From: Synechococcus sp.
GTDB taxonomy: Bacteria; Cyanobacteriota; Cyanobacteriia; PCC-6307; Cyanobiaceae
DNA: 64,000 bases
Assembly (NCBI GenBank): GCA_047285535.1
Contig: JBJBDC010000001.1
Coordinates: 448,136 to 512,135 of the forward strand
Reading direction: 5' to 3'
Positions 3,189-62,832 of this stretch are shown here, piece by piece (position 1 is the stretch's first letter; every line of letters starts with the position of its first letter). Both the position numbers and the translations under genes were made by a program. Below the pieces are notes generated by a model, which saw only the letters and a program-made list of their open reading frames with translations, did no database searches and had not been told where the DNA came from.

Positions 3189-3946
3189 TCTCTCACAATA
3201 ATGATTCTCACAACACATTTCTCAGCAGCTCTTGCCCTCGGGCCTTGGCTACTCGATCACCTTCTGGCCCTATTCCCCTTAGGACTCCCCCCCTACGCCA
3301 CCTCAAAACACAGGGCGCAGTGGCATGAAGGTTTCTCCAGTGAGATACATAATGAGTACATGATCTTTACAGCACTTTTTGCATCCGCGTTAGTTTTTGG
3401 ATACTCCGGCCAAGGGGCTTCGCCCGGCGTCCTGGTTGGTATCAAACCTGGGCGATGAAAGTGTAAGTGCAGCCAGATTGCAGTAAAGACTTTCTTTGCC
3501 GTTGTTTCGTCCATTGAAATACAGCAGCTACTGTCTGCGTTGATCATCAGTACAGCGGCGAAATATAGACCGTTGGAGAATCTGGCTGGAGACTGGATAA
3601 CGAATAGTCAAATTGCATCCGTGGTCTCTCACTACCCTGTTTGTGTAGGGGGAAAATAAATCTTGATCCTCAGGTTTGATCATTGAATCCTGATACTCAG
3701 CTTTGGCCTGTGGTTTTAGTTTCAGCAACAGTTGTTTTTTTGTTCGTGGCCTTATCTGCTTCAAGCACAGGCACTTTTGAATGTGTAGGAGCTTGCAAGT
3801 GCATGATTGAATGCCCTGGAACTTGCCTTTGTTGAAAGTTATATGTGCATAGTTCTGGGCTTTCTGACATCCTGTGAGCAAGCTCAAGGTTCCGACTCAA
3901 CTCGCTGAGTGGGCAGTTTCAGCATTACTGTTATTTAGTAGGAAAT

Positions 3947-3967
3947 AAAACCCCGCTCGTGGCGGGG
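3947..3967 (-). terminator. Rho-independent terminator of the porin gene
   Basis: CCCCGC/GCGGGG stem followed by a T tract on the minus strand, ~60 nt after the som stop. Confidence 0.75.
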
Positions 3968-4028
3968 GTGGTGATTTGTTGTTGATTCAGGGACGAGCGA
4001 CAAGCCTCGAATCAGTTTGATCGGAAAT

Positions 4029-5735
4029 TCAAAATTTAAAAGTAGTTTTGATCAGACCGCCAAAATTGCTGAAGGTGTCGTTTCTACTTTCGTTAAGAGC
4101 GTAAGAGAATTGTCCAAGAGGACGGCTGAGATAGTAAAGCGCAGGGGTGATAGAAATGTTGTCTGTAATTTGAAACATATACCACCATTCCCAGGCGTAG
4201 TTTCCGTCGCCGACCCAGAGGTCTGTCCCATCAGCTTCGATAGAAGTCACGAAAGTGGGTTGACCAACTGCCAGGCCAAGGGTATTGCCCTTCACGAAGG
4301 CATCAGCCCACTGAAGACCTAAATACCATGACTGAGAAGTCGTGGTGTTGTAGGAGGGAAAACGGTCTACATCCAGTTTGGTGGAGTTGAGCCCCCAGCC
4401 GGTGCTGACACTGGGTATCAAGCCGGACTTTTGAGGAGACCAGTATGCGCTCACACCAACAGAATTAGTGGTGCCAAGTTGTGAAAGGCTTGATGCAAAA
4501 GGGGTGCTGTTAGTTAAAGATAAGCTCATGCCATTATCGCCAGCTGCGTAGTTATACGCAGCTGCAATGCCCCACTGATCAGCCGTATAAGCCAGCTGAA
4601 TCGTTCCGCTAGATGCGGAACAGTCAGTGGCAATTCCTCCGCAATTGTCATCAACATCCTGCCCTAGGACATTGGTATTCTCAAGCCAATCATAGCCAGT
4701 AAAGTTATTCGTACTACTCTTGTTTGGATTCGAAACGTTACCGTTAGCGCTGACATAATTTGCGCTAATGCTCCAACCATTGTTCGACCAGCTCAAGCCT
4801 GCACCGGGACCAAGCGCCAGGTTGTAAGCACCCGGCGCGCCAGCGTAGGTAAAGAAATCAAGAACCGTATCTGCCGGATAGACACTGGGCCAAACAGCCA
4901 GCATGTCGTCTTGACGGACCAAACCACCAACGGTTGCAGTGAAATTGTTGCCAATGGGGAACTGGTACCACAAACGGTTCACAGCAACACTGTTAGCACC
5001 TGAAGGCTCTTGGAAGGTAGTCTCCAATGCTGTCAGGCCAGTGGCAACGATTGGGAGTATTCCTCTGAATGTATTGCCTCCGACTTCACCAGCACCTCCA
5101 AAGACAGATTGATCGAAGTTGCCGGCACGCAGCATGGTGCGGAGAAGATCCTTGCCGGTGAAGCTGGTGTCGAGGAAGAGACGAAGGTCGTAGTTGAAAA
5201 CTGTGCCTCCCCAGTTGCCGTTGTAGTTCTTGGTGGCTGCGCTTACGTTGCTCGAGGCTTTTGGAGCCCCAAGCACGAAGCTGGCTTGACCTTTCAGCTT
5301 GGTGGTGGTGGAGAACTGAGTGGCTTCCAGTTCACCAACGCGGGCTTCCAGTCCGTCCACACGGCCCTTGAGGATCGCGAGTTCCTTCTCGAACTCTTTC
5401 ATCAGACGCTTGAGCTCTTCGGTCACTTCAGTAACGCGATCGAGACAGGCATTCAACAGAGCCGCCGCTTCAAAGCGGGTCATCGCTCTGTTGCCGCGGT
5501 AGGTGCCGTTGGGGTATCCAGCGACGCAGCCGTAGCGCTCGATCAGGTTGCTCAGTGCCTGATAGGCCCAATCGGTGGGGTACACATCAGAAAACTGAGC
5601 GATGCTGGTGACTTGCTCACCAGTGGCGGTGTAGTCAGACACACCGTTGATGTTCAGCTCAGTGGCGTTGGCAGCCACAGGGGCCAGAAGGCCCAGTACC
5701 GCTGGAGCCACCAGCAGTTTGCGGAACAGTTTCAT
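4029..5735 (-). CDS. som: Som-type outer membrane porin (SLH domain + OprB-like barrel)
   Basis: Signal peptide, FSDVYPTDWAYQAL SLH motif, ATQFSTTTKL, C-terminal FKF. Confidence 0.95.
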   Translation of the reverse strand: MKLFRKLLVAPAVLGLLAPVAANATELNINGVSDYTATGEQVTSIAQFSDVYPTDWAYQALSNLIERYGCVAGYPNGTYRGNRAMTRFEAAALLNACLDRVTEVTEELKRLMKEFEKELAILKGRVDGLEARVGELEATQFSTTTKLKGQASFVLGAPKASSNVSAATKNYNGNWGGTVFNYDLRLFLDTSFTGKDLLRTMLRAGNFDQSVFGGAGEVGGNTFRGILPIVATGLTALETTFQEPSGANSVAVNRLWYQFPIGNNFTATVGGLVRQDDMLAVWPSVYPADTVLDFFTYAGAPGAYNLALGPGAGLSWSNNGWSISANYVSANGNVSNPNKSSTNNFTGYDWLENTNVLGQDVDDNCGGIATDCSASSGTIQLAYTADQWGIAAAYNYAAGDNGMSLSLTNSTPFASSLSQLGTTNSVGVSAYWSPQKSGLIPSVSTGWGLNSTKLDVDRFPSYNTTTSQSWYLGLQWADAFVKGNTLGLAVGQPTFVTSIEADGTDLWVGDGNYAWEWWYMFQITDNISITPALYYLSRPLGQFSYALNESRNDTFSNFGGLIKTTFKF

Positions 5736-5741
5736 TTTCGG

Positions 5742-5750
5742 TCCTCACAC
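5742..5750 (-). promoter_or_regulatory. Yfr1 sRNA seed site GTGTGAGGA over the som ribosome-binding region
   Basis: Complementary to the conserved Yfr1 motif ACUCCUCACAC; 6 nt upstream of the ATG; som mRNAs are known Yfr1 targets. Confidence 0.7.
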
Positions 5751-6090
5751 CAAAAACTTGCGTTACTCAGACGCACTGCTTCGATCCTCAACAGTGCCAA
5801 CGAACCATCCCGTTTACGCATCCTGCGTGCAATCGATTGGGGTCAGTTTCATCTTTGCCGGTTATTTCTCAAAATTAAAGACGAAGTTGATTGGTGCGTA
5901 GCGTTGCCAACCGATCTTTTGCAGGATGATCCTCATCTCGATGCCCTGGTGACACACCCTCTGTTTCTGTCTGAGGTCTTGCCCACTAGTCGTGAGTGGC
6001 GACAGGAGGTAACCATTCCGCATTGATCGTGCAGGGTGGGGGTATCGCGTCGGATTTGGATTAGCTGCTGTGTTGTTGCTGATCAACTCG

Positions 6091-6354
6091 TCAGCCCTCA
6101 CCCCCGGGCTTCTCTTTAGGCAGGGTTTGAATCAACGACTTAAGAATTCGATGTCTGTCTTTGTAGTAGGCCTCTATTAATAACCACCGAAGCGCAAAGC
6201 AAGCTCTAAGGCTCCATAACCAAATAGGAAAGTGCTTCCAAGCAGTGCTATCTCTTTTTTTGAGCTTGCCATAAAGATCAGGGTTGACTCCATCACCAAC
6301 GACCGAAAGAATCCAAAGGAAATCTGAAGGCTCAACGTTTCGAGATTTTTCCAT
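6091..6354 (-). CDS. Hypothetical protein (87 aa)
   Basis: ATG-started ORF with no recognised motif. Confidence 0.35.
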   Translation of the reverse strand: MEKSRNVEPSDFLWILSVVGDGVNPDLYGKLKKRDSTAWKHFPIWLWSLRACFALRWLLIEAYYKDRHRILKSLIQTLPKEKPGGEG

Positions 6355-6474
6355 TCACCTGTCCCAAGGACCTCTGTTTACGTAATTTCAGGAAACAGGC
6401 GTAACAGCAACTTTTGGGTCCTGGCGCTCTATTCCTTTATCTTCCCCAAACAAAAATAACTGCTGAAATTTATT

Positions 6475-6702
6475 TCACCCCTCTAGGTGTCCAGTCTGCG
6501 GTGCTCGCCATGAGGCTGCCCAGAGATTGCAGGTTTGGGTGAAGTGTTGCCCCTGCTGGAGAAGTTCCTGCCAGATGTTGCACGCCATCATGATGTGGCA
6601 CTGCTGATTCACGCCATCCCTGACTTGCTGGCAAGCCTCGAAACCACTTGAGCAAGGACAGTTTATGAGTTTCCTCTCGTCCCCATTGCTCCACTCCTCC
6701 AT
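6475..6702 (-). CDS. Small Cys/His-rich picocyanobacterial protein, degenerate paralog of 9003-9233
   Basis: Aligns end to end with 9003-9233 (MEEWS..ER.L.NC.CSS...LLQQGQH.T.TCNLWA); first Cys of the CxxC is lost. Confidence 0.65.
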   Translation of the reverse strand: MEEWSNGDERKLINCPCSSGFEACQQVRDGVNQQCHIMMACNIWQELLQQGQHFTQTCNLWAASWRAPQTGHLEG

Positions 6703-6796
6703 GGCTGCTGGTTAGTAGGCGTGTGTTGACACAAGAGGCGGCAGATGGTTCACCACCAACACAGAAATTGGCTACAGCAGCAGGTTTCTAGGACCC

Positions 6797-7108: not shown

Positions 7109-7418
7109 AGAGAATTTCTGTATTAAGTATTGAATCGTTTAAAGCCGTTGATGGGTTAGAACATAAGAATGAAGTTATTGCCTAGTCACTACAAGCGATT
7201 GATTCCTCAAGAGGGCATTCAGGGTTGCTGGATGGTGAAATCAAACGGGAGTCCTTGAGTGAGGAATCAGTTGACTGGGTATGAGATTGTCGTACAGCTA
7301 CTGCTTAGGCTACTCCTATACCCATGCCACTGAAATAAGCAATCAAGACATTCATTGATATCAGTGAGTAACAACCCTGCTCCCAATTTGGTTTTATGAT
7401 TACCTCTTGCTGCCATGA

Positions 7419-7913
7419 TTAGGGGACGTCCCCTTCATTGTTGGATTCGTAATAGTCTTGGTGAGAGTTATCAGAAAAATGATGGCTTTTCTGGTATAAC
7501 GTGTATAGGTTTAGAAGATTAGATCTTCTCTCTTCGTGTTCGTTGCTAACCATCAGTTGATCATACTGAGTAATTACATTTTCGTCTAAACTTTCTTCTG
7601 CCCAGGTCATTAGACTCCAGTATTCGTCATACCCTCCTACAAGATCTTGCAGTTGGTCAATGTAGAAATCTGCTCGCTCTCCATCGACAGAATATTCAGA
7701 GCTTAGCTCTGAATATTCTGTCGATAACTCTCCAATCAGTTCGTTTTGTCGAAGCAGCTCTTTCTCTAATTGGTTGAACTCTTGCAGTATCTGTTCCCGT
7801 GAACCAGCCCATTCAATCTGAGTCTTATCGAAATTGATATGCTCAGCCTCGCTCCCGTTATAGAAGGCTTTGGGATTGATTGTAAGTCCGTTGTACCTAT
7901 CCATTGTTGTCAT
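7419..7913 (-). CDS. Acidic coiled-coil hypothetical protein
   Basis: 164-codon ORF; ATG overlaps an upstream TAA (TAATG). Confidence 0.55.
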   Translation of the reverse strand: MTTMDRYNGLTINPKAFYNGSEAEHINFDKTQIEWAGSREQILQEFNQLEKELLRQNELIGELSTEYSELSSEYSVDGERADFYIDQLQDLVGGYDEYWSLMTWAEESLDENVITQYDQLMVSNEHEERRSNLLNLYTLYQKSHHFSDNSHQDYYESNNEGDVP

Positions 7914-9002
7914 TAGCAAAGTTCGTTAGAATCGCTAAGATCCAAAAGTTTTCCTACTTTGGTTCGATAGTGTCTTAGGTGGTAGCCATTCAGCTAAGAG
8001 TTCTGACGCCCTTGATGCATAGAGTTGTCTGAAAGTAATCATACTCAATGACAATCTAGTGCTTTCAATAAACAGCTTGTAGACTAATGAATTAATTATT
8101 GGTGAGAAAGGCCTAATCGCATGCTCATTGACTCCTCACACTATGACTGAAGTGTGACATTAACGCGATGGCAATAATGAAGGAGTTGTCATTTTTATGT
8201 TGGTCATTATCATTAGATTCTGCATGGACATGCCGTATTTAAGGTTTAATTTGGTTTGTGTCCGCCAAGACGACCTGTCGCCGTTGTGGCGTAGTCTTAG
8301 AGGCATTGAAACTTCCAGTAGCAAAAGACTATCAATACTAAAGTCTTCGTCTGAAATTGAGTGTGTTGAATTCATTTTCTATCTGTTCTACAGGACACCT
8401 TTTTACTGCAGACTGATTTTGTGAAGCCTACCTTCCAAAACAACTAACGAGACTGCGTCCTTGCTAACGGCTGAAGGGATTTAACTTCTTACTTCTCCTG
8501 ATGTCCCAGGTCACAATGTTGATAGAGCAGCTGATGTTGCATCAGTTTCCCTGCTCGCAGAGGTATCGCCTCCCAAGCTCCCTTTGAACCAGTAATTAGC
8601 CTTCGGTAGCTTCGTTCTATCGATTTGGTGATTCGTGCTCTCGCTTCAGGTGAGCATCAGGCCAGCAATGGGACCGAGTTCATGTTGAACTACGAGTACG
8701 CTTATCGATCTCTAAGTCATCCGATTCTGATGCAGCTATGTTTGCTGTATCGAGAAAATGAACAGCCTAAAAAAATTTGTCAACGGCAGCAATTCTTAGC
8801 GCGCTCCAACTGAAAGGAGGGAAAAGTCAATCAACCTGGTGGCTAAGGATTGGCTGACCACCGCGAGCGTGCTTTACAAAGCGTCATCATGGCGATAAAA
8901 TAAACAAACGATTTTGAACACGGGATCGTGAACTCCTCTGGGAAGAGGTTCTCATCACATCAGAAGGTCTCTGTGGAAGGAGATCTTTTTTTATGCCTTG
9001 GC

Positions 9003-9334: not shown

Positions 9335-9525
9335 TGTAAGCAAGATCACAGACCTGGGTGATGGCCATCAGCGAGCGAGGCGGTGAGTTCAGAGAAGCTG
9401 AAGGAGTCAGGGGGGCAGCCCAGCGCTGAACTCTCAGCTCTTCCTCAGAAGATTCAAGCGATTTGGATCTACAAAAAGGGAGGAGCCATCCCTTCTGGTT
9501 CGTTCACTTCAAGACACCGATCACC
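9335..9525 (+). repeat. Peptide-gene upstream element, copy 2
   Basis: TGTAA-GCAAGA-TCACA at 9335-9350; colinear with copy 1 up to the ATG. Confidence 0.9.
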
Positions 9526-9720
9526 ATGACTGACATCAACTCAAAAGCGATGGATGAATCACCCGTGGATTCAGAACAGATGGATCAGGAAATCAAGCCG
9601 GAAGACCTGCATGCGATCTCTGGTGGCTGGGGAAGGAGTTGCTATTACAGCTACAGCAACAACCGTTCTGCTAGCTACACCGCTGCATCAAGTGATGACG
9701 GTAGAAACGGTAGAAACTGA
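9526..9720 (+). CDS. Double-glycine leader precursor peptide, Ser/Tyr-rich core (64 aa)
   Basis: ...DQEIKPEDLHAISGG-WGRSCYYSYSNNRSASYTAASSDDGRNGRN; followed by a hairpin. Confidence 0.85.
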   Translation: MTDINSKAMDESPVDSEQMDQEIKPEDLHAISGGWGRSCYYSYSNNRSASYTAASSDDGRNGRN

Positions 9721-11716: not shown

Positions 11717-12401
11717 ATGATCAGTATTCTCGTCGTTATGACCCCGCACGGATAACTCGGAGAGACGGGCTACACCACTGGCTTCTGGTTCGAAGAATTT
11801 GCTGCTCTATATTTCATATTCAATGAAGCAGGAGCAACGATCCCATTCGCATCCCCGCAAGGAGAGTTGCCGACAATCGAACCCAAGAGCAACAGTTTGG
11901 ACACGGAGACAGAAACCATTTGACGGTTCAAGGCTGATTGTTTAGCCGCTCGATCATTCGCCACTAGCGCAAGGCCGTACTTCCTTTCAGCTCATTACTT
12001 TGACGCAGTTTTTAATCCCCGAGGACTCGCTCCTCTATAAGCCTTTGTAGACAGCGAATCATCGATTCAACTGATTGAAGATTTCTGGGCAGATTGCAAG
12101 TCTATCTTCGCTGTATGCCATGCTCCAATCGTTTTCATCATCGCTAAAGATCAGAATGGTGAGCCTATTGTCAAAGGACGAGAAGTGACTGGATTCACCA
12201 ATTCTGAAGCAGAGGCTATAGGCCTCAGCAAAATTGTGCCTCGGCTTCCAGAGCCAACAATGATTGCTAATTAATGGTGCCAAATATTCGAGAGGTAGCG
12301 ACTGGCAGTCTTATACATGCCAAGACGGCAATCTGATTACCGGTCAGAACCCGCGATCATTTGAAGCAGTGGCGAAACTCATACTTCGAGCTCTTGCTTG
12401 A
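11717..12401 (+). pseudogene. DJ-1/PfpI (type 1 glutamine amidotransferase-like) pseudogene
   Basis: MISILVVMTPHG*LGETGYTTGFWFEEFAA...ASPQG...AVCHAP...VTGFTNSE...DGNLITGQNP; several stops and a frameshift. Confidence 0.85.
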
Positions 12402-12632
12402 AATCAGTCTAAAAATGAGCGGGATCCAATGGTCCTCACTGATACCTGACTCCATAGATTCTCTGGTTTCACAAGCCAGCCGATGCCGTCAATCAAGCAG
12501 CTCTGTGATTTGGCTCACAGGATCCCAGACATCAGGCACCATTAAGCGGAGGCAGTTTTAGCGTTACCATGAAAGAAATAGCAAGCAACAAACATTCCCA
12601 ACCTATCGTTAGGACTTTAAGTAATAGAAATA

Positions 12633-12926
12633 TCAGCTCTTTCCAGTAATGGCCCCATTAAAGGGATCTTCTTCATCTTTGAAACCATCAATATAACTGG
12701 TTTTGTTCGATCCATCAGAGTCACAGGAGCCACAGGAGTCAAGATTCTGATCGACCGTTTCAAGTTCTTTGAGAATCTTTTTAGCTCCTTTATAGACCAA
12801 ATAACCAATACCTCCAAGAACGAGGGCTGGCAAAATTGGGACAGCACCACCGTTATATGACGCAAGGTCTTCAAGACTTAACTCTTGATCAACTGAGTCT
12901 TGGTTGAGGGTTGTTGTGTCAATCAT
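12633..12926 (-). CDS. Double-glycine leader peptide with a bacteriocin-like hydrophobic core (97 aa)
   Basis: DQELSLEDLASYNGG-AVPILPALVLGGIGYLVYKGAKKILKEL...CGSC. Confidence 0.75.
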   Translation of the reverse strand: MIDTTTLNQDSVDQELSLEDLASYNGGAVPILPALVLGGIGYLVYKGAKKILKELETVDQNLDSCGSCDSDGSNKTSYIDGFKDEEDPFNGAITGKS

Positions 12927-13015
12927 GGTTTTGAATGTAGTAGAAGTGTTTGACTTCGGCATACACAACATCGCTGAGGTCAATCCGAAATGCGATGATC
13001 CAAATCACTAATCAT

Positions 13016-13031
13016 AGTGATATTGATCACA
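13016..13031. promoter_or_regulatory. CRP-type box upstream of the 12926 peptide gene
   Basis: AGTGA-TATTGA-TCACA, one mismatch to TGTGA-N6-TCACA. Confidence 0.55.
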
Positions 13032-13264
13032 ACATCATCAAAGAAACAATGTCTTGCCCAAAGCTGTACTCTTCTCCTGTGTATTCGAGTTCAAAAGGTA
13101 TAACCTATGAAGAATATTGCCTCAGTTAATGCATCCTAAAGTCGATTAGATTCAATCGATCTACTCAAGGCCTGGTTCGTATTGTTGAAAGAACAAATAC
13201 ATGGGTCAAACACGAATGCAGATGGTTCGAATTATCATTTATCTTGCTTAAAGAGCAGTGTCAA

Positions 13265-13453
13265 TTAACCTGAGTTGTTATTGCTACCAGAGTTCGAGGA
13301 GTAGCTCGCGGATTTGCTACTACTGTAACTGGAATAACAGGACCGACCAAAACCACCGCTAATCCTCTTCAAAGTCTCAGGCTTAATTTCCTCGTCAAGC
13401 TGCGCTGAATCTTCAGGTGTCTCTTCTAGAGATTGTGGTTTGGGTTCGGTCAT
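13265..13453 (-). CDS. Double-glycine leader precursor peptide, Ser/Tyr/Asn-rich core (62 aa)
   Basis: ...DEEIKPETLKRISGG-FGRSCYSSYSSSKSASYSSNSGSNNNSG; paralog of 9526. Confidence 0.85.
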   Translation of the reverse strand: MTEPKPQSLEETPEDSAQLDEEIKPETLKRISGGFGRSCYSSYSSSKSASYSSNSGSNNNSG

Positions 13454-13641
13454 GGTGTTTGGTGTCTTGAAGTGTTGGAACCAAAAGAGATGGCCACTCC
13501 CTCTTTAGACCCAAATGGCCTTAGTCTTCTGAGGAAACGATGAGAAATCAGCTCTTTGCTGTACTTCTGAATCCAACAGACTGAACGGATGTGACGGCCA
13601 TACGTGATTCGTGATGATGTTGCTCTGTGATTTTGAATACA
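13454..13641 (-). repeat. Peptide-gene upstream element, copy 3
   Basis: Box TGTAT-TCAAAA-TCACA on minus (13626-13641); shared TTCCTCAGAAGA and CACTTCAAGACACC blocks. Confidence 0.8.
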
Positions 13642-14043
13642 GAGGACAGAATCAGTACAATCGAGAATTTCCGCATTGTCGCTCCGTTAACAGACAATAG
13701 GGTGTGCTATGAATAACCACAGAGCTTTCAATAGGACCCAGTGGTGTAACGAGCAAACAGTCCAGGCTTGATCACAGATCGTTGTTAGTTAGGGGAAGAT
13801 AGGTTTAATCGAGAGATTCGACGCTGTCCAGAACACGGCAAATTCCACTTCGACAACGAATGACATCACATCGTATGATCTTAGTAGTACTTGTCTGACT
13901 ATCAGATAAAGCAAGGTTTGTGGTGACTTCAATTACTCAGGCCAACATAAAATACCGATACTTTGATGATGATTCAGCTGTGCTAAGGGGATAAAAATGG
14001 ATTAGTGAAACTCATTGAACCGCAAATAGCCAATACTTGATCT

Positions 14044-15660
14044 CTAACAAGGATTAGGGTTGGTCTCCATAAATGATGCTAACCAAGGGAATCTCTTCTG
14101 TCGTTCTGATAGGGAACAGAGGGTATGCCAGATAAGGCGATTAGATCCAGGAAGTCCATTGTCAATAATAACATCATCATCAACTACCAAAAGGAATGAA
14201 CTTGAAGAGTCATTGTTTAACAACATACTCCATTCAAAAATACCTTTTGGGAACAGAACACTACCGGAGTTTTGGCGAACTTTGATTGATAGTGATTCAA
14301 AGAAGGATGTAAAGTTTTTATTTTCATCGAAAACCTCATCAGCGTGAATAATCCCAATATCCAAGTCACCTTGACAGCTCCAGAAATCTTCAATAGCAGA
14401 AAGCTCCTCTTTAATCTCTCGTTCGATAACCGACTTGGGATCGTTAAGGTAACCAAAGCCACATGGTATATTCATTTCTAAAATCACACCAGAATCAATT
14501 AATTTTGAGTCTTCATTCTTTAGTATTAGATCTATTCCACAGCTAGGGAACCCTAATGTAGCAAGCATGGACTCAATAGTCTTCACATCGTCCTCATGAA
14601 TCATGGATGACTCCACAAGATGTAATGTTGATGCACTTATCGCTGGAGAAAGAGGAATCGATTTTCCCTTCTCGGGAATACACACGTTCAAATCCGTTAA
14701 GGAATAAACCTCATAGCCAATCGTCCGCTTTAGAAGTTTTTCTCTTAAATGTGTATTAGTCTCGATTTCGTTCATTAGTTGTGGATATTTATCGTGAATC
14801 AGCTTGCCTAGGCTTGAACAACCGTCACCAGTAACTGATTTAGGTTTCCCCCTCCATACTGAGTGGAGCTTACCATTACTAAAATAAACTCGATATTCAC
14901 AACCTTTTACTTCCTCCTCAATAATATATTGATCCATATGACCACCCAAGTTTCTGAGTGCGTGTGTCAATTGCTCTGATGTCTGAATACCAATAAAGAC
15001 CTTTTCAGAATTCGAAGATGTAGGCGACTTGACGACAATTGGCCCCTTCAAGGTTGAGGCTACCTCGTGAGCCATATCATATCCCCAAACTGTTGCTCCA
15101 TCCGCTACAGGTAATCCGAAAGACTTAAGATACGATCTACAAACCGATTTATTTGTGCCAACTAACGAAGAAATACAATTGGATGATGGTCTCATATTCA
15201 TTATAAATAATCTTGCATATCGACCAAAACCCATCATCGTATAAGGAAATGAGCCTAGAAATCCACACGTAACAGGGATTTTATTTTTCTTGCAAAAGTA
15301 GTAATGGATTCCAAAGGTGGCTTCAAAGAGTTCCTTATTGGCCTGAGCCTGATTGACTTTGATAACCTCTGCAGGTGTCAGGCACTCATTAACAATTAAA
15401 TGACAAAGTGTATCTATGTCTAGAAAGTGTGAAAGCTTGCAATAAGCATGTGTGATGCCATCAAAAGAATCACCGAAATGAAGGGAAGATACAAGATTGT
15501 TGTCCGAAAAAATAAGCCATTTGTTATTCAGCTCATCCTCTACACACCCCTTTATCCAAAAATGAGCAATCTGTGATCCTGGAACAAAAGATCTCGATTT
15601 GTGGTAACAACTTTTGATGACTCTACAACGAGGTTGGGAATCCATATTGTTTATTGGCAA
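14044..15660 (-). CDS. Stand-alone ATP-grasp ligase, cyanophycin synthetase/GshF-like
   Basis: NKSVCRSYLKSFGLPVADG, GPIVVK, YIIEEEVKGCEYRV, VTGDGCSSLGKLI, CGIDLI and VILEMN follow the CphA/GshF ATP-grasp motif order; no intact Mur-ligase domain. Confidence 0.85.
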   Translation of the reverse strand: MPINNMDSQPRCRVIKSCYHKSRSFVPGSQIAHFWIKGCVEDELNNKWLIFSDNNLVSSLHFGDSFDGITHAYCKLSHFLDIDTLCHLIVNECLTPAEVIKVNQAQANKELFEATFGIHYYFCKKNKIPVTCGFLGSFPYTMMGFGRYARLFIMNMRPSSNCISSLVGTNKSVCRSYLKSFGLPVADGATVWGYDMAHEVASTLKGPIVVKSPTSSNSEKVFIGIQTSEQLTHALRNLGGHMDQYIIEEEVKGCEYRVYFSNGKLHSVWRGKPKSVTGDGCSSLGKLIHDKYPQLMNEIETNTHLREKLLKRTIGYEVYSLTDLNVCIPEKGKSIPLSPAISASTLHLVESSMIHEDDVKTIESMLATLGFPSCGIDLILKNEDSKLIDSGVILEMNIPCGFGYLNDPKSVIEREIKEELSAIEDFWSCQGDLDIGIIHADEVFDENKNFTSFFESLSIKVRQNSGSVLFPKGIFEWSMLLNNDSSSSFLLVVDDDVIIDNGLPGSNRLIWHTLCSLSERQKRFPWLASFMETNPNPC

Positions 15661-15671
15661 AAGGAATAAAA

Positions 15672-15925
15672 TTAGCTAGGGCAGCACATCAAGCCTGTAT
15701 CACTTGAAGCTGTGCAATTATCGTTACCTTTTAGTTTAGAATCTTTTGATGGCTCAAACTTGTTCGTTTGAAACTGTATTCATGAGCCTTGAAACTCTTT
15801 TCGATACAATTCTTGCTAGTTGCAGACCGCTTAAATTGACCTCCAGAAGCACTATAATCAATTTCTTTTAACAGCTCATTATTGGCTTCGCTGTGAGCTT
15901 CTTCTCTGCTGTCAAAAGTGGACAT
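15672..15925 (-). pseudogene. Frameshifted (or mis-sequenced) GG-leader precursor, paralog of 16490-16765
   Basis: 254 nt, one short of 85 codons; adding one T at 15771-15773 gives ...SASGG-QFKRSATSKNCIEKSFKAHEYSFQTNKFEPSKDSKLKGNDNCTASSDTGLMCCPS. Confidence 0.85.
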
Positions 15926-15967
15926 GACGACTAGACTGTATCAACTAATTAGATTTCTAGCCAATCA

Positions 15968-16357
15968 ATGTTGCAAGCCAACAGAAACTTAACAACTTTT
16001 CAATCATCTATGCCATTCTCAAACTTTCCAGAAATAGATTGTAGCTTGATGCTTTTAAAATTCACTGATGATAGTTGTGGATTATGCTATAAAATGGCTC
16101 ATTTTGACAGTGTAGTGGCCAATAAAATGAGCATCGATATGGTGGAAATTAAAACCAGCTCTAAGGAGTTTGAGCATTATCGTGAGTTGTTTTATTCTTT
16201 TTTCCAAGATTCAGAAGTTGCCGGCTGGCCAACATATATTTTAGTTCGCATCGATGGAGAAAAAGGTATGCCCTTAGGTGTAATCAAGGGAGCATTGCCT
16301 AAGAAAGAGTTTCGAGAAGGTCTAGCCTCCTTTCTTTCCGAGAATCAACTTGAATAA
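15968..16357 (+). CDS. Thioredoxin-family protein (CGLC)
   Basis: LLKFTDDSCGLCYKM...GWPTYILV...KGALPKKEFRE; true start may be 16010 or 16049. Confidence 0.85.
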   Translation: MLQANRNLTTFQSSMPFSNFPEIDCSLMLLKFTDDSCGLCYKMAHFDSVVANKMSIDMVEIKTSSKEFEHYRELFYSFFQDSEVAGWPTYILVRIDGEKGMPLGVIKGALPKKEFREGLASFLSENQLE

Positions 16358-16417
16358 CAAGCCATTACCATAGACACCTTGTAAACCATAAATGGCTTAG
16401 CTGGCTGATAACAGCTA

Positions 16418-16456
16418 TATTGACCCCCATCGATTGATAGTTGATGGGGATCAATA
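16418..16456. terminator. Hairpin between convergent thioredoxin and precursor genes
   Basis: TATTGACCCCCATC...GATGGGGATCAATA inverted repeat. Confidence 0.55.
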
Positions 16457-16489
16457 GAGACTCTTATATTAATTCGATTAAAGTTAAAA

Positions 16490-16765
16490 TTATCCAGGGC
16501 AGCCCATCACTCCAGTATCACTTGTCGCAGTGCAATTATCACCTGCTAGTTCGCGGATTTTAGAAGGATCAAACTTATCGATTTGAAGCTCTAATTCCCT
16601 AGTTTTAAAACTTCTAGCACGAAAAGACTGGCTCGGAGCCATAGGTTTGAAATTGCCTCCTGATAAGCTAGAAAGCTCACTTAAGGTTTCCGAATTAATT
16701 TCTTTGTCTATTTGCTCTGAAGCCTCTGGAGATTGATCAAAGGCTTGTGAGTTGATTTTAGTCAT
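16490..16765 (-). CDS. Double-glycine leader precursor with a C-terminal C-X10-C motif (91 aa)
   Basis: ...DKEINSETLSELSSLSGG-NFKP...DNCTATSDTGVMGCPG. Confidence 0.85.
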   Translation of the reverse strand: MTKINSQAFDQSPEASEQIDKEINSETLSELSSLSGGNFKPMAPSQSFRARSFKTRELELQIDKFDPSKIRELAGDNCTATSDTGVMGCPG

Positions 16766-16952
16766 GGTGTTCAGTATGTGAAGTTAAAAAATCAGAAGGG
16801 ATGGCTGCTACCCGTTGCGGACACAATTGGTTGAGTCTGTTTCGGAAGTGCTGAGAATCAGCGCTGTCCTTTCCCCCTGACTCCCTCAGTTTGTCTGGAT
16901 TCACTCGTCCTACCGATGATCTCTGTCACGTTGGACTGTGATCCTGCTCACA
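16766..16952 (-). repeat. Peptide-gene upstream element, copy 4
   Basis: Perfect TGTGA-GCAGGA-TCACA (16937-16952); shares GGAGTCAGGGG...CAGCGCTGA and AGCCATCCCTTCTG with copy 2. Confidence 0.85.
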
Positions 16953-17617
16953 GGCGCTATTACAGTGGCCTCTACCATGTTTAGGGAGGCTTGTTGTGCG
17001 CAAGTTATATGCAGCGGTGTATGCACTGAATCACTCACAAAGGTATCTAAGGTCCCACAGTGACTAGATAGATAGATTTCAAACCTCAATTCCACAATCG
17101 TTGAAAATACAACTCCTCAATCTCAACAATAAATGTTCAATAATTTTCGGCCTTGTAAGCCATAAATAATACTTAGGCAGTCTATGCTCTTTGTTCACGT
17201 GCAATCCACACATTCAAATATGAGCACATCAAATCCGGCCCTGAGAGACCAGTTCATCAATAAAATTAGAAAATTAGGTTAAATTGAATAACGCAAAAAG
17301 CGCGTAAATACGTATTAAATGAGACTCGAACAATGGTCAGATAGGTCAATATATGTTGGTCTGACAACTTAATAATTGCCTTGAATTGCTAACTTGTTTT
17401 AATCCTGAAGCGTTGAGACCCTGGCTCTTCATGCTTGTCGCATAAGCACAATATGTCTTGTTTTATCACAGGATAGACACATGAATCACAGCTCAAAATC
17501 TCTTCAATCAGATCATCCAAAATGTTGAGTTTATCAACCCTGTGTTTCGATCCTCAAACCACAAGCAAATGGCCACGGTACAACGAGTTACAAACTTATC
17601 TTGGCGGTCGGTATGGT

Positions 17618-18322
17618 TCAAATATTTGACTCGACGAGTCCATGGGTCAAGGCATAAACAGCTGCTTGAGTTCTATCTCTAACCCCTAACTTCTGCATCG
17701 CTGTACTCACATGGCTCTTGACTGTCTCTACTGAAAGAAAAAGGCTTTGCGCAATCTCGTTATTCTTCATTCCTTGAATGATACAACGAATGACTTCTAG
17801 CTCCCTTTCTGACAATGGGTCAACAAGCGTGGGCAATGGCTTTACCTTTGCTGTAGCAACTTCGCGTACAGCTTTTGGGAAGTAAATTCCACCACTAGTG
17901 GTAACAGTTAAGGCTTGAATGAAATCACCTGAGCCAGTACCAATAGAAGAATTAAACATCACTCCATCAGCTCCTGCTTCCATTGCTTCTTGAACAACCT
18001 CTGGCGTCTCCCTATTAAGAAAAATCATGGCCTTAAGTTCTGACGATTTTTTTTTGGCAGTCTCTACGAGCCTAATTCCATAGCCCGTTTCTAATTCTTC
18101 GCTGGTAATCAAGATATGTGGGTTGCTTTCTTGTTGAATTTGTAGCGCTTCATCTTCAGTTGTTGCTCCGCCTACGAGTGATTGCAAAATAGGAGTGCAA
18201 AGGCAAAGCGCGGAGAGCGTCAAGCGGTTTTTTGAACAAACTAATACCCTTTTGTGTGCCAATAATTTCTGACAGACAGCTGAGGCCTTCTTCATTGATT
18301 GTTCAGATGGATTGATCCTCAC
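17618..18322 (-). CDS. NarL/LuxR-family response regulator with an atypical receiver domain
   Basis: LSERELEV...GMKNNEIAQSLFLSVETVKSHV...KLGVRDRTQAA; probable GTG start at 18322. Confidence 0.9.
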   Translation of the reverse strand: MRINPSEQSMKKASAVCQKLLAHKRVLVCSKNRLTLSALCLCTPILQSLVGGATTEDEALQIQQESNPHILITSEELETGYGIRLVETAKKKSSELKAMIFLNRETPEVVQEAMEAGADGVMFNSSIGTGSGDFIQALTVTTSGGIYFPKAVREVATAKVKPLPTLVDPLSERELEVIRCIIQGMKNNEIAQSLFLSVETVKSHVSTAMQKLGVRDRTQAAVYALTHGLVESNI

Positions 18323-19324
18323 GTCTTGATGTTTGTGATTTAACAATCGTAGCTCACATCCTATCTTCAGCAATTTTCCACCGAATAACGAGAGATCACA
18401 ACGTTCAAACCTTGGCAAAGTTTTGATTGGATGCTCACTTGGTGCCAACGTTGCTGGTTTCTATTGATATTGAGAATGACTAAAAATCCGAGAATTCATA
18501 ATGGTGGATTGAGTAATGTTTCAACTCTGCACGTTCGTCGCTACTGAGTCTTGATTTGTTCGATTGCTTTTGCTCTTAGCCCTTGTCCCATCCTTAAGGA
18601 AGGTCTCATGGCGCCCCCTTCGGCCTTAGCCCTCTAAGGACTGCGACCAGTATCAGCTGCATGAAAACCTCGCCTTACCCAGCATCAAATCCAAATGATC
18701 AAGACACAACTCAGCTGCTGCTTACGCGATCGGTGGCCGCCAACGACAAAGCCGATGCATAAGTCAGCCAAATGTGTTATATATAACGTACGCCAAAGAA
18801 CCCAGTAAAGGGACCACTGAGCGCGAACCATAAAGTTGAATCAATGAATCAAACAACACTCATTGCCAAAAGAGGTTTGCCTGCTTCAAGCGACAGTAAG
18901 CAAAAGCAACCCAAGCAAGAACCCGAACTCATCACTTGGGAGGAATTGATCGGCAGACAATAAATGATGCTCACCTAGTTGATCAGATTCCTTTTGAACA
19001 GTCACTGAGAAGGTGGCTTGAGGGTTGAGAGCTGATGAAGAACAGTCTTTATCCCATTGATGTTTTGCTCTATCAACACTATTGATGCGCTTTGAAGGAA
19101 TGGATGATCCATCGTTTCTCATGGCTTGAACTGCCGGCCGACAACACCTGCAGTGGCACCTCACCAGGACTGCCACACGCTGAACAGCCACATGGCTGAC
19201 CACCAAAGACGTTGTTCTGAGATGGATTGAAGGCGGCAGTCATATCCAGCTGCATGAAGAAGGGATTGAGTTACCTGCTGACTGCAAAAATTCGGCACTC
19301 TCAAGTCGTACTGGCAAAGGAGCC

Positions 19325-23167: not shown

Positions 23168-23251
23168 CTTTGCTGAAATCATGTAACTCTCGGGCATTTT
23201 TGCCTCGACAGATCAATCCACTGTTAGAAAGATTGTAGACGTAATCAATTC

Positions 23252-23428
23252 ATGACGACAGCAACCATGAAGTGCGCCTGCCCAAGGTGCGACTGCGAAA
23301 CGAGCGGTTCCTCTGCCGTTTTCAAAAATGGACAAAGCTTCTGCTCTGATGCCTGTGCAAGCGGCCATCCCAACAATGAGCCATGCCATGACAAGGCTGG
23401 CGCTTGTGGCTGCACTTGTGGTGGATAA
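23252..23428 (+). CDS. smtA: Bacterial metallothionein (58 aa; absent from the ORF track)
   Basis: MTTATMKCACPRCDCETSGSSAVFKNGQSFCSDACASGHPNNEPCHDKAGACGCTCGG. Confidence 0.92.
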   Translation: MTTATMKCACPRCDCETSGSSAVFKNGQSFCSDACASGHPNNEPCHDKAGACGCTCGG

Positions 23429-46438: not shown

Positions 46439-46523
46439 CGGAGAGGGTGGGATTCGAACCCACGGATGCTTTCACATCGCTGGTTTTCAAGACCAGAGCC
46501 ATCAACCACTCGACCACCTCTCC
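46439..46523 (-). tRNA. trnS: tRNA-Ser(UGA)
   Basis: GGAGAGG acceptor stem, CTGGT-CT-TGA-AA-ACCAG anticodon arm, long variable arm, GGTTCGAATCC T loop; 85 nt. Confidence 0.97.
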
Positions 46524-60498: not shown

Positions 60499-61818
60499 TC
60501 ATGGCTAAGCCCAGTGTTGAACGGTACTTTTTTGTTGGGAATGGTCTCCACCACCTATTGCCTGCGGCCATCAAACAAGACAGATGGATTGAAGTCAGAG
60601 TTAGATTTGCGATCTACTCTTTCTGTGATTAATGTTGACAGTATTCCTGTAGATTTTCGAACTTTCTCGGGTTGATTTGCCTTATTTTCTTTGGATTGAC
60701 GGCTCCTCGGGTAACAGTTCAAAGGGTTTTATTTGTAATACATTTATTTTTTGGAGTGATTTTCGCTCCGGGATTTAAGTTTTTGCTATGTATTTTGTCC
60801 TTTGTTTTCGGCTTGGATCCTAGTCATTGTTTTGCGTTGTTGCGACGTTTTCCTCTTGTGGGATCGAAGTATTCGACTGCGTTTTGAGTCAATACGAATA
60901 AGGGTATGAACTGTTTCTGTCAAGCCTGCCAGTGTCTAGGTATAGTTGGAACTCAGTTGCCTATGACTTTTGTTGGCTCTCGTTTGTAGTATGAATGAGC
61001 TCATGATTTCTCTTGGGTCGATCTGTCGTCGATGAAATGAATCTGGCTATTATTTTTAATGCCTTGAGGGTGGCAGTAGTGATTCTCTGAAGGGGGCTAA
61101 TCGCTTTTTGAAGTGATTGTATGTATGAAGATTAAGTTGTCTCTTGGGAATATTGTTGATTGCTTCTGGGAAGTTGTGTTTCTCAGTTATGGTTCTTATA
61201 GGGAGGGTTTATGTAAATTGGTTTTGTGGGTTGAATGCTTAGCACGCCATTGCTTGTTGATGCTTTGTCGTCAAGAACTCCCATCACAGAAAAAAGTTCT
61301 TTTCTTTGAGTTTTGGTGATAGGCATTGATAGTGTTTGAGGATTAGCTTTTGAATCTATGGCTTTAGCGTTGAAGGTGATCGTGCTTGCTGGCGAATGCT
61401 TCATGTTTGGATTGTTGTGGATTCTATGTTTCTGGCGAACTTGGCTTGTTGTTTGCCGGTCAAGGAGGGGTAGATGGAATGAGGGAGTGAGATCTATTGG
61501 GCTTAGATTGTAAGCCTAATTTCAATTATTTGAAATTCATGGCGACTAAACTGTGGCTTGATTCTACCTTGTGAATGTTTCCATTTTGTGCAAGCTTTTG
61601 TTCGTGTCATTCATCTTATCTTGACTGTCTAAATAATTACTTCGCTAATCCATGTCAGGTTTTACCGGCCGCTTGGTCGGGCTTAATGAGTCCTCTCACC
61701 GCTAAGGTTTTTATCACAAAATCAGAACGGCTGGGTATTGCCTGCTGAGAATCATCTGCAGTTTTTCATTGTTCGACATTTTGTATTCAGACATGGCTTT
61801 CTTAGACATGCTGGCTAC

Positions 61819-62832
61819 ATGTCTTCTTTTAGCCTCCTTGAGCGTGCCAGTGCGGAATTGCTGAACTGGCTCCACGAAACAGCTCAAGTCCAATCGATTG
61901 AAAAAAACACTCCACTCCTAAGAGAGGCCGAGATCAATCAGAAGGTTGTTCTGCTGCTCAAAGGGCAGCTGATCCTCACTTCAACGATCTTGAAAAGAGA
62001 AGTCGATGTTCTGGGAGATCTGAGTATTGGTGACCTTGTTGGAGAGATGAGTTGGCTTGAACAGCAGCCTGCCTTTGCAACTACAACGGCAAAGACAGGT
62101 GCAATGGTTTTAGAGATACCGTTCAAAAGCTTGGATAGCCTTCAAAACAGCAACCCTGCAATCGCGGCCGAACTGAATCGGTTATTAGCTCAAAAACTTG
62201 CGCTTCAAATCCAAGAGCAAAATATCTGGGTGCATCGTCTCAAGGAAAACACACTCCCTGAAGCCCCCCTTCGGAATGTTCTCGTACTCTTTGCCAGCCT
62301 CAATGAACAAGACATTCAGTGTCTTGCTGAACTGGGACAAAGGCAGAAACTTCAACCAGGTGACTGCCTCCTTAAGCAAGGGAACGATGTGGATGCCTTG
62401 TATCTCGTTATGAGCGGGGATGCAGAGATTACCTTCACTCTCTCTGGTGACACTCAACTTGTTGGTAGTGCTTGTAGGGGAGAATTGCTGGGAGACATGG
62501 CCTTTCTCCTTGAGGACCAATCAGGTGCCTCAGCTGACGTTCGCTCGAGGGATGGAATGGATTTGCTGCGTCTTGATCGCAGAGGTTTACGTCAGGCACT
62601 CGACCAAGATCCATATCTTTCCTGTCGCTTCTACAGAGGTTTGGCGTGCATGTTGTCTCAACGCAGTCGACATCAACTTCTCAGCAGGCAGGTCAATACC
62701 GTCAGTCATGAATCTGAATTGTTCGACAATGATCGACTTGACACGATTCAATTGCGAGGAATTAGTCGAGCAGCGCGCCATTTTGATTGGCTTTGCCAGC
62801 ATTTCCAAACTGGGCATCAGGTGCGGTCATGA
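61819..62832 (+). CDS. Tandem cyclic-nucleotide-binding domain protein
   Basis: Two cNMP-like domains (GDLVGEMSWL; GELLGDMAFL); no C-terminal HTH; ATGA overlap with the next gene. Confidence 0.88.
   Translation: MSSFSLLERASAELLNWLHETAQVQSIEKNTPLLREAEINQKVVLLLKGQLILTSTILKREVDVLGDLSIGDLVGEMSWLEQQPAFATTTAKTGAMVLEIPFKSLDSLQNSNPAIAAELNRLLAQKLALQIQEQNIWVHRLKENTLPEAPLRNVLVLFASLNEQDIQCLAELGQRQKLQPGDCLLKQGNDVDALYLVMSGDAEITFTLSGDTQLVGSACRGELLGDMAFLLEDQSGASADVRSRDGMDLLRLDRRGLRQALDQDPYLSCRFYRGLACMLSQRSRHQLLSRQVNTVSHESELFDNDRLDTIQLRGISRAARHFDWLCQHFQTGHQVRS

Follow-up and report, generated by a model that had tools for sequence, protein, structure and literature searches.

What does an enzyme built like cyanophycin synthetase do when it is encoded beside short peptides that appear to be made for export? 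The question is raised by positions 14044 to 16952 of a 64,000-nucleotide stretch of Synechococcus sp. DNA (assembly GCA_047285535.1, contig JBJBDC010000001.1, positions 448,136 to 512,135; hereafter the window), where an ATP-grasp ligase, a thioredoxin-like protein and two peptide precursors lie together. The host is a cyanobacterium with a genome of one 3.03-Mb contig, and a phycobilisome linker and a CPP1-like gene are present in the window. A preliminary description of this DNA had proposed that a ligase related to cyanophycin synthetase (CphA) was recruited to modify a ribosomal peptide. By a slender balance of probability, we favor the view that the genes constitute a ribosomal-peptide maturation cassette of an undescribed type, in which the CphA2-like ligase would activate a terminal carboxylate. 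To our knowledge, ATP-grasp maturases of ribosomal peptides have so far come from one lineage, that of the graspetide ligases, and cyanophycin synthetases are known only as nonribosomal polymerases. If a CphA2-like enzyme does serve a ribosomal peptide, the graspetide and cyanophycin fields would be joined, and a new family of enzymes that ligate peptides at the C terminus or at side chains would be gained. The genes concerned are as follows.

16490..16765, minus strand: precursor 1, an intact open reading frame (ORF) of 91 amino acids
15731..15925, minus strand: precursor 2, leader part, an ORF of 64 amino acids with ...SASGG
15672..15779, minus strand: precursor 2, core frame, a stop-to-stop frame with the end ...DNCTASSDTGLMCCPS
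15968..16357, plus strand: protein of thioredoxin fold that has CGLC and W-P-T, its gene lying between those of the peptides
14044..15660, minus strand: CphA2-like ATP-grasp ligase of 538 amino acids, recognized from its ORF, profiles, structural model and structural alignment

Precursor 1 consists of a double-glycine leader (...LSSLSGG), a spacer of 40 amino acids and the C-terminal core DNCTATSDTGVMGCPG, and the protein is present in the database as P0225. The two peptides had been described as paralogues with double-glycine leaders and a shared C-terminal block; this holds for the intact precursor 1, whereas precursor 2 is not a single ORF, its leader part stopping after 64 amino acids and its core continuing in a different frame. 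The ligase does begin, on the same strand, 11 bases (15661-15671) past the stop of that second core at 15672, with a TTG start; an alternative ATG at 15645 gives a protein of 533 amino acids that matches the database form P0001. The thioredoxin-like gene occupies the position between the peptide genes that was given for it, but on the plus strand, opposite to both peptides and the ligase. Contigs of four public sequencing runs (X2, X4, X5 and X8) were placed on 14044-16952 for a comparison of strains. The probable source run, X2, is identical over this region and keeps the frameshift at a word depth of about 200 with no variant, and a marine metagenome (X8, depth 9.4) likewise lacks the extra base behind 15777 that, in a run from another study and with another organism label (X4), fuses leader and core into an ORF of 84 amino acids with the family motif at its end. 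The frameshift in precursor 2 is real in this genome yet not universal, and only precursor 1 is intact here. In X5, a C>T change at 16510 turns a Val of core 1 into Met, giving the M-M of the family consensus, and in core 2 a double change of the final codon replaces the terminal Ser by Gly, the usual last residue of the family. Across strains, 9 of 10 differences in the leader ORF of precursor 2 are nonsynonymous; for the ligase, 7 of 12 are synonymous and 5 of 12 nonsynonymous, which we count in favor of the cassette.

The tie between ligase and peptide was assessed in twelve loci from genome and metagenome collections and in one locus from a genome search (L023). L012, a 1.7-kb contig matching only ligase residues 306-504, was left out, L011 duplicates L010, and L021, L022, L024, L031 and L032 are loci already counted. 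The precursors of L003 and L008 are out of sight because their contigs begin 53-101 nucleotides before the ligase. All eight main-clade loci with readable upstream DNA (the window, L001, L002, L004, L005, L006, L007 and L023) have one or two short ORFs on the same strand upstream of the ligase that end in the core; a scan of the flanks of ligase homologs for such peptides had been proposed as a check. The gap between precursor and ligase is 27-83 nucleotides in L001, L002, L004 and L023, and in L005-L007 a further gene intervenes, encoding a fusion of MauE with a thioredoxin-like domain. A Shine-Dalgarno-like sequence precedes the ATG of all seven precursors of L001, L002 and L004-L007. Record titles place L001 and L002 in the Gemmatimonadaceae and L003 in the Bryobacteraceae, and loci from soil metagenomes are included as well. 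The whole genomes G061 and G062 each contain exactly one precursor match, and it adjoins the ligase. In six frames of the window the motif C-x4-D-[TS]-G-x-M-x-C occurs at two sites only, the two cores; the association is above chance, and the motif recurs upstream of ligase homologs in other phyla. The layout in 8 of 8 loci is that of peptides synthesized ribosomally and modified post-translationally (RiPPs) in general, with a short precursor of variable leader and conserved core beside a putative modifying enzyme. The proposed recruitment of a CphA-like ligase to a ribosomal peptide is thus upheld as far as the tie between enzyme and peptide goes and is weakened in the window itself by the frameshift in the second precursor.

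A profile built from eight precursors retrieved 50 peptides of 49-122 amino acids from the database. Every one of them carries C-x2-[TS]-x-D-[TS]-G-[MVI]-M-G-C followed by just 1-3 residues to the C terminus, the tails being PG in 27 peptides, SG in 8, TG in 5, GTG in 4, PS in 3, AG in 2 and VG in 1, so that the consensus reads C-x2-[TS]-x-D-[TS]-G-M-M-G-C-x-G-stop. None of the 50 departs from [TS]4, D6 and [TS]7, and in an alignment of precursor 1 with seven precursors from other loci C78, D83, G85, M87, G88, C89 and G91 are invariant and the leaders variable. Among the database peptides, too, leaders vary freely and are, by eye, mostly of the double-glycine type. The database precursors P0237, P0268, P0269, P0270 and P0272 and the precursor at 4717-5082 of L004 have the same core behind Sec-signal-like N termini and long Pro/Ala-rich linkers. 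A near-invariant core of 14 residues across phyla is unusual for secreted peptides, and its conservation suggests a conserved ligand or target. A metal is an obvious candidate, given that the core has two Cys and two Met.

The ligase has an N domain (about residues 1-125), an ATP-grasp G domain (about 130-425) and a remnant of an M domain (about 430-538). Pfam gave only weak ATP-grasp signals (E 0.014) and no Mur ligase domains. Among NCBIfam models, that of cyanophycin synthetase, TIGR02068, matched best (E 7.5e-30) but with 103.6 bits where 850 is the cut-off, and NF010623 scored 97.4 bits against 877, so that the curated cyanophycin synthetase models were not reached; GshF (E 4.5e-13) and then Ddl followed. 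TIGR00768 was the only RimK-type model among the 14 NCBIfam families that matched at E ≤1, with 15.2 bits against a cut-off of 143.4, in a library that presumably holds dedicated graspetide-ligase models. An AlphaFold2 (AF2) model made from 10 family sequences reached a mean predicted local distance difference test (pLDDT) score of 88.8, and Foldseek ranked CphA1 (E 5.5e-27) and CphA2 (E 8.6e-26) ahead of GshF and Ddl. Residues 12-538 of the model align to CphA1 1-616 (Z 18.8, root mean square deviation [rmsd] 6.7, 496 residues), and residues 9-538 to 6-580 of the 585 residues of CphA2 7ta5 (Z 17.8, rmsd 6.9, 486 residues), at a structural-alignment identity of just 15-16% to cyanophycin synthetase. 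The alignment thus ends near residue 616 of CphA1 chains of 870-877 residues and the ligase itself at 538; the domains stand in the order N, G, M, and M, cut short as in CphA2, comes down to about 110 residues and is not an intact domain. From these alignments to CphA1 and CphA2 we deduce a CphA2-like layout of N, G and truncated M. The family profile matched CphA1 in the PDB over the G domain (E 8.4e-32), and the family loop 'ssnSdgv' (SSNSEK here) aligns to DGNHGRGV of CphA1 7lgn. ATP-grasp invariants, including R306 and E395-x-N397, are kept in 10 family members. The best single-domain structural matches are complexes of ArgX/LysX (Z 16.3, rmsd 3.0, 234 residues), and the ESM Atlas returned generic ATP-grasp and CphA-like clusters only. 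The enzyme had been described as CphA/GshF-like, distinct from the microviridin or RimK type, lacking an intact Mur domain and carrying SSNSEK where CphA has GNHGRG, and the profile and structure searches bear out each of these points.

The family is a small one. A search of 5.8 billion clustered proteins found just 10 close relatives (E 2.6e-27 or better), with cyanophycin synthetases next from E 5.8e-19, and a profile search of 1.84 billion representatives found about 30 proteins at or above 260 bits, the next standing at 190 bits. Full-length matches in a local hmmsearch fell in the family alone, and the nearest homologs are P0002 (54% identity) and P0003 (35%). A quick IQ-TREE phylogeny (LG+G4) was computed from 65 G domains: 24 of the family, 13 from proteins of about 870 amino acids, 16 of about 600, 7 multidomain and 5 short, the comparison groups being set by length, so that only some members carry the CphA1 or CphA2 name. 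All 24 full-length family members lie on one side of a branch of length 0.7, with a Shimodaira-Hasegawa-like approximate likelihood ratio test (SH-aLRT) value of 100, against the 41 others. The family does not group within the CphA1/CphA2 G-domain clade of this tree, nor with the proteins of CphA1 or CphA2 length, and on this set of G domains the phylogenetic check called for earlier went in favor of a separate clade. Its nearest neighbors or sister group are four short unnamed proteins (P0119, P0120, P0123 and P0159; 385-472 amino acids) with a CphA-like G domain. No ligase gene turned up in 60 relatives, 36 of them of the same genus, or in 400 other cyanobacterial genomes sampled; it occurs in 2 of 201 genomes of the family of G061, G061 itself included, and in the seed genome only among 401 of the phylum of G063. 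The gene is rare and patchy, and its absence from the 400 cyanobacterial genomes argues that it is not a housekeeping storage enzyme.

How such an enzyme might act on the core can be outlined from its relatives. A preprint on CphA2 (bioRxiv 10.1101/2023.04.15.537035) describes a noncatalytic N domain, an inactive M remnant and a G domain that transfers phosphate to the chain's C-terminal main-chain carboxylate prior to attack by an amine. In the cassette, the precursor would be made in the cytoplasm, and the ligase would bind the conserved core and use ATP to phosphorylate a carboxylate of the peptide, as the G domain of cyanophycin synthetase does. The main-chain carboxylate of the terminal Gly is the preferred site because CphA1/2, GshF and Ddl activate a terminal main-chain carboxylate and because the precursors end 1-3 residues after the second Cys. 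The acyl phosphate would then be attacked either by the amine of a free amino acid, the case in CphA, or by a nucleophile within the peptide, with closure of a ring. A thiol-disulfide oxidoreductase, the soluble CGLC protein here and a membrane fusion of MauE and thioredoxin elsewhere, would manage the two invariant Cys, with a 12-residue disulfide loop as the likely result, and, as the peptide is exported, a C39-peptidase ABC transporter whose gene lies just beyond the window's end would cleave off the double-glycine leader.

The genes for the last two steps are in part recognizable. Homologs of the thioredoxin-like protein start at a Met near 16049, and the real gene therefore probably encodes about 102 amino acids. 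The protein matches Pfam Thioredoxin_2 below the cut-off (E 1.9e-4, 22.2 bits against 27), and its AF2 model, of moderate confidence (pLDDT 71.9), has thioredoxins and protein disulfide isomerase domains as its best Foldseek matches, from E 2.8e-4. CGLC and W-P-T are invariant in six homologs (that of the window and five cyanobacterial ones), so that a CxxC, a cis-Pro loop and a thioredoxin fold are all present. The protein is a diverged paralogue, at about 35% identity, of a patchy family that 7 of 36 same-genus genomes and 9 of 24 other cyanobacterial genomes carry. In L005, L006 and L007 the gene between precursor and ligase encodes MauE fused to a C-terminal thioredoxin-like domain with CxxC, and where the contigs of L003 and L008 break off, they still show the tail of such a gene; the window's own genome has two MauE matches, both distant from the window. 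The part of a thioredoxin in the cassette, as first described, is supported by this recurrence of thiol-disulfide oxidoreductases and qualified by the local cyanobacterial origin of the family to which the window's protein belongs. The role of that protein is read from its position and from the analogy to the MauE fusions, and the recurrence of nonhomologous thiol-disulfide proteins argues that the two Cys may need such a partner. As for export, the ligase of L006 is followed by genes for a cNMP-binding protein, HlyD, a C39-peptidase ABC transporter, a second ABC transporter and a metallo-beta-lactamase-fold protein. In the window's own genome a Peptidase_C39 domain (G000:C1:514820-515206, E 6.4e-39, in a frame of 735 amino acids) lies 2.7 kb past the window's end; the cNMP-binding gene and the C39 transporter are about 45 kb from the cassette, and the order cNMP-binding, HlyD, C39 is that of L006. 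Machinery matched to a double-glycine leader is thus present in both, and we infer that the C39 transporter past the window's end handles precursor 1.

Several observations weigh against this scheme. Everything in it beyond the linkage of the genes is inferred. In the core, Asp6 varies as little as the C terminus does, so that the activated carboxylate could equally be the Asp6 side chain, as in graspetides. About five database precursors and that of L004 have, by eye, Sec-signal-like N termini and no double-glycine leader, and with these a cytoplasmic ligase would need to act ahead of Sec export. The cyanobacterial relatives of the thioredoxin-like protein occur elsewhere without adjacent core peptides, which points to a redox partner recruited locally; BLASTP between the window's protein and the MauE fusion of L006 gave no significant similarity (E 59), so that the two appear analogous, homology not being indicated by that comparison, and the available DNA of L001, L002, L004 and L023 has no recognizable thioredoxin gene. 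Distant ligases in L009 and L010/L011 (24-25% identity) follow a different double-glycine peptide ending ...C-x2-T-x-D-V-T-C-P, that is, in C-P without a Gly, and L010 also has a LanM gene. In L010 the distant ligase and a class II lanthipeptide synthetase (DUF4135 and LANC_like) are encoded side by side, at 3504-6728 (minus strand) and 7330-9000 (plus strand), and both maturases may act on one precursor. Through these distant loci the enzyme family's tie to ribosomal peptides is widened, and both Asp and the C terminus stay in place as candidate carboxylates. In favor of the scheme, with the peptide as a substrate of tailoring, we count that two ligases, in L005 (7962-11000, plus strand; 1,012 amino acids) and P0076 (984 amino acids), are fused to a GT41/NGT-like glycosyltransferase domain, which suggests that glycosylated variants of the peptide may exist.

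Of the other ways to read the locus, the chief one is a graspetide-like reaction, which we hold to be unlikely, yet serious enough to be kept in view: the noncanonical ligase would phosphorylate the side chain of Asp6 and join it to an invariant Thr/Ser or to a Cys thiol, giving a small lactone or thiolactone within the Cys1-Cys12 loop. Thr/Ser-Asp crosslinking was the option named first in the preliminary description. The invariance of Asp6, [TS]4 and [TS]7 in all 50 peptides supplies both an Asp acceptor and Thr/Ser donors, of the kinds (Asp/Glu and Thr/Ser/Lys) that such a reaction calls for, the distant L009/L010 peptides retain C-x2-T-x-D, and the ATP-grasp enzymes known to mature RiPPs form side-chain lactones and lactams, as a graspetide phylogenomics study describes (PMC8939145). 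The relatives nearest to the ligase, however, all activate terminal main-chain carboxylates, and its best score against the RimK family is 15.2 bits where 143.4 is the cut-off. For the ring sizes known from graspetides, Thr4-Asp6 and Asp6-Thr7 are too close together, and a reaction at Asp6 would leave the constant C-terminal position of the core unexplained.

That constancy in all 50 peptides would also suit a carrier or scaffold, in which the peptide is not the product and the ligase loads an amino acid onto its C terminus, as in LysW-LysX/ArgX or RimK-S6, and ArgX/LysX are the best single-domain structural matches (Z 16.3). The match spans the generic ATP-grasp core only, though, with Ddl and RimK close in Z score; the export signals, be they double-glycine leaders plus a C39 transporter or of the Sec-like kind, speak for secretion of the peptide, and no further biosynthetic enzymes recur in the loci. 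We consider a carrier improbable. Even less credit is due to the idea that the enzyme is an ordinary CphA2-type polymerase or small-molecule ligase and that its adjacency to the peptide has no functional meaning. It does share the N, G and truncated-M layout of CphA2, and cofolding of the ligase (alignment A1) with ATP and precursors (alignment A3) gave scores of 0.13, 0.48 and 0.50, one control likewise scoring 0.48, an outcome that counts neither for nor against binding and so gives no direct sign of it. Against this stand the same peptide family beside the ligase in 8 of 8 readable loci from distant phyla, the fully supported split of its clade from proteins of CphA1/CphA2 length, and the lack of the ligase in all 400 other cyanobacterial genomes sampled. 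What we prefer is therefore a maturation cassette with a CphA2-like ligase that acts on the C terminus. The cassette is real and conserved and, as far as its genes reveal, is best filed as one of ATP-grasp-matured ribosomal peptides on the cyanophycin synthetase lineage. Whether it represents a new RiPP class with a defined role is a bolder step, conceivable and put forward tentatively: a CphA2-derived ligase would activate the C-terminal carboxylate of the peptide for extension or ring closure, and the near-invariant 14-residue product, with its two Cys and two Met, would bind a universal ligand, Cu(I) for instance, much as a chalkophore or metal buffer does. Conservation of the core from cyanobacteria to Gemmatimonadaceae and Bryobacteraceae, together with double-glycine or Sec export, speaks for a universal ligand rather than the target of a strain-specific bacteriocin.

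The whole set lies in a low-GC island, with a G+C content of 39-41% in the cassette region against 45-52% in the flanks. The following genes provide context.

13265..13453, minus strand: double-glycine peptide of 62 amino acids with a Ser/Tyr-rich core
12633..12983, minus strand: double-glycine peptide with a hydrophobic core
61738..62832, plus strand: protein with two cNMP-binding domains (Pfam cNMP_binding, E 2.9e-25), probably part of the export module

The leader of precursor 1 resembles the leaders of two unrelated double-glycine peptides in the island, at 9463..9720 (plus strand) and 13265..13453 (minus strand), and a host-type leader thus seems to have been fitted to the core. The double-glycine peptides of the island besides the precursors number three and have unrelated cores, those at 9463-9720 and 13265-13453 being Ser/Tyr rich with one Cys and that at 12633-12983 hydrophobic; the last matches NCBIfam TIGR03949 (class IIb bacteriocin, lactobin A/cerein 7B family) at E 0.0037 and 17 bits, below the cut-off of 21.5. 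The spacer of precursor 1 (16560-16600, minus strand) contains ...TRELELQIDKF..., akin to the leader end ...TREELETLSGG of the L007 precursors. As a conjecture, the precursor of the window could be an older unit of leader and core, in front of which a double-glycine leader of host type was set. Positions 6000-46523 have the look of a genomic island, with few ORFs of at least 100 amino acids and a G+C content of 35-45%; AT skew is strongly negative from 30 to 50 kb of the window, and the island ends at a tRNA gene (46439..46523, minus strand) just before a gene for a B12-dependent ribonucleotide reductase. Immediately upstream of precursor 1, and on its strand, is a gene for a LuxR/GerE-type regulator with a subthreshold receiver domain (17618-18448, minus strand), a possible regulator of the cluster. 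A scan of 12400-17400 found 10 promoter-like sites where 13.0 were expected and 5 terminator-like sites where 3.7 were expected. The motif scan also yielded a small Cys-rich ORF at 23228-23428 (plus strand), whose stop-to-stop frame of 66 residues has many CxC/CxxC pairs and His and which we take to resemble a bacterial metallothionein.

Full-text searches of the literature, with subscription journals and bioRxiv supplements outside their scope, brought up neither a RiPP cluster described as having a cyanophycin-synthetase-like enzyme nor the core motif; in its main text, the graspetide phylogenomics paper (PMC8939145) is silent on cyanophycin, thioredoxin and disulfide. The preliminary description had not recognized the combination as a described class, and this assessment stands for the literature searched. 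Precursor 1 and the ligase form a compact two-gene system that is directly testable in Escherichia coli.

Among known systems, CphA2 (PDB 7ta5 and 8fxi) is the closest in build: like the ligase, it has an N domain, an ATP-grasp G domain and a truncated M domain, presumed to be inactive; the ligase retains the catalytic Arg and the E-x-N motif, and by analogy an acyl phosphate would be expected to form on a peptide carboxylate. The ligase of the cassette differs in its identity of 15-16%, its score of 103.6 bits against 850, its separate clade and its SSNSEK in place of GNHGRG, and its gene is tied to a ribosomal precursor and export genes, with a substrate that we take not to be poly-Asp/Arg. 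Graspetides, with their MdnB/MdnC-like ligases, share a leader, a Thr/Ser/Asp-rich core and an ATP-grasp enzyme encoded beside the precursor. Graspetide ligases are RimK-like enzymes of about 320 amino acids, whereas the window ligase has about 535 amino acids in three domains and belongs to another ATP-grasp lineage, and the core of the cassette lacks the Lys/Glu pattern, has two invariant Cys and two Met and is always C-terminal. RimK and LysX-ArgX resemble the preferred model, in which an ATP-grasp enzyme acts on the C terminus of a gene-encoded polypeptide, and match the G domain at Z 13.5-16.3; they are single-domain enzymes without N or M, and their substrates are not exported and have neither leader nor Cys loop. 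The MauE-thioredoxin fusions within the cassettes of L005-L007, finally, recall candidate RiPP clusters with MauE/MauD. As the text of the decRiPPter survey presents them, mauE/mauD homologs occur in Cys-rich candidate RiPP clusters of Streptomyces, with precursors of at least eight Cys and other enzymes (PMC7794033), whereas the cassettes described here combine a core of two Cys with a CphA-like ligase and, in the window, with a soluble thioredoxin.

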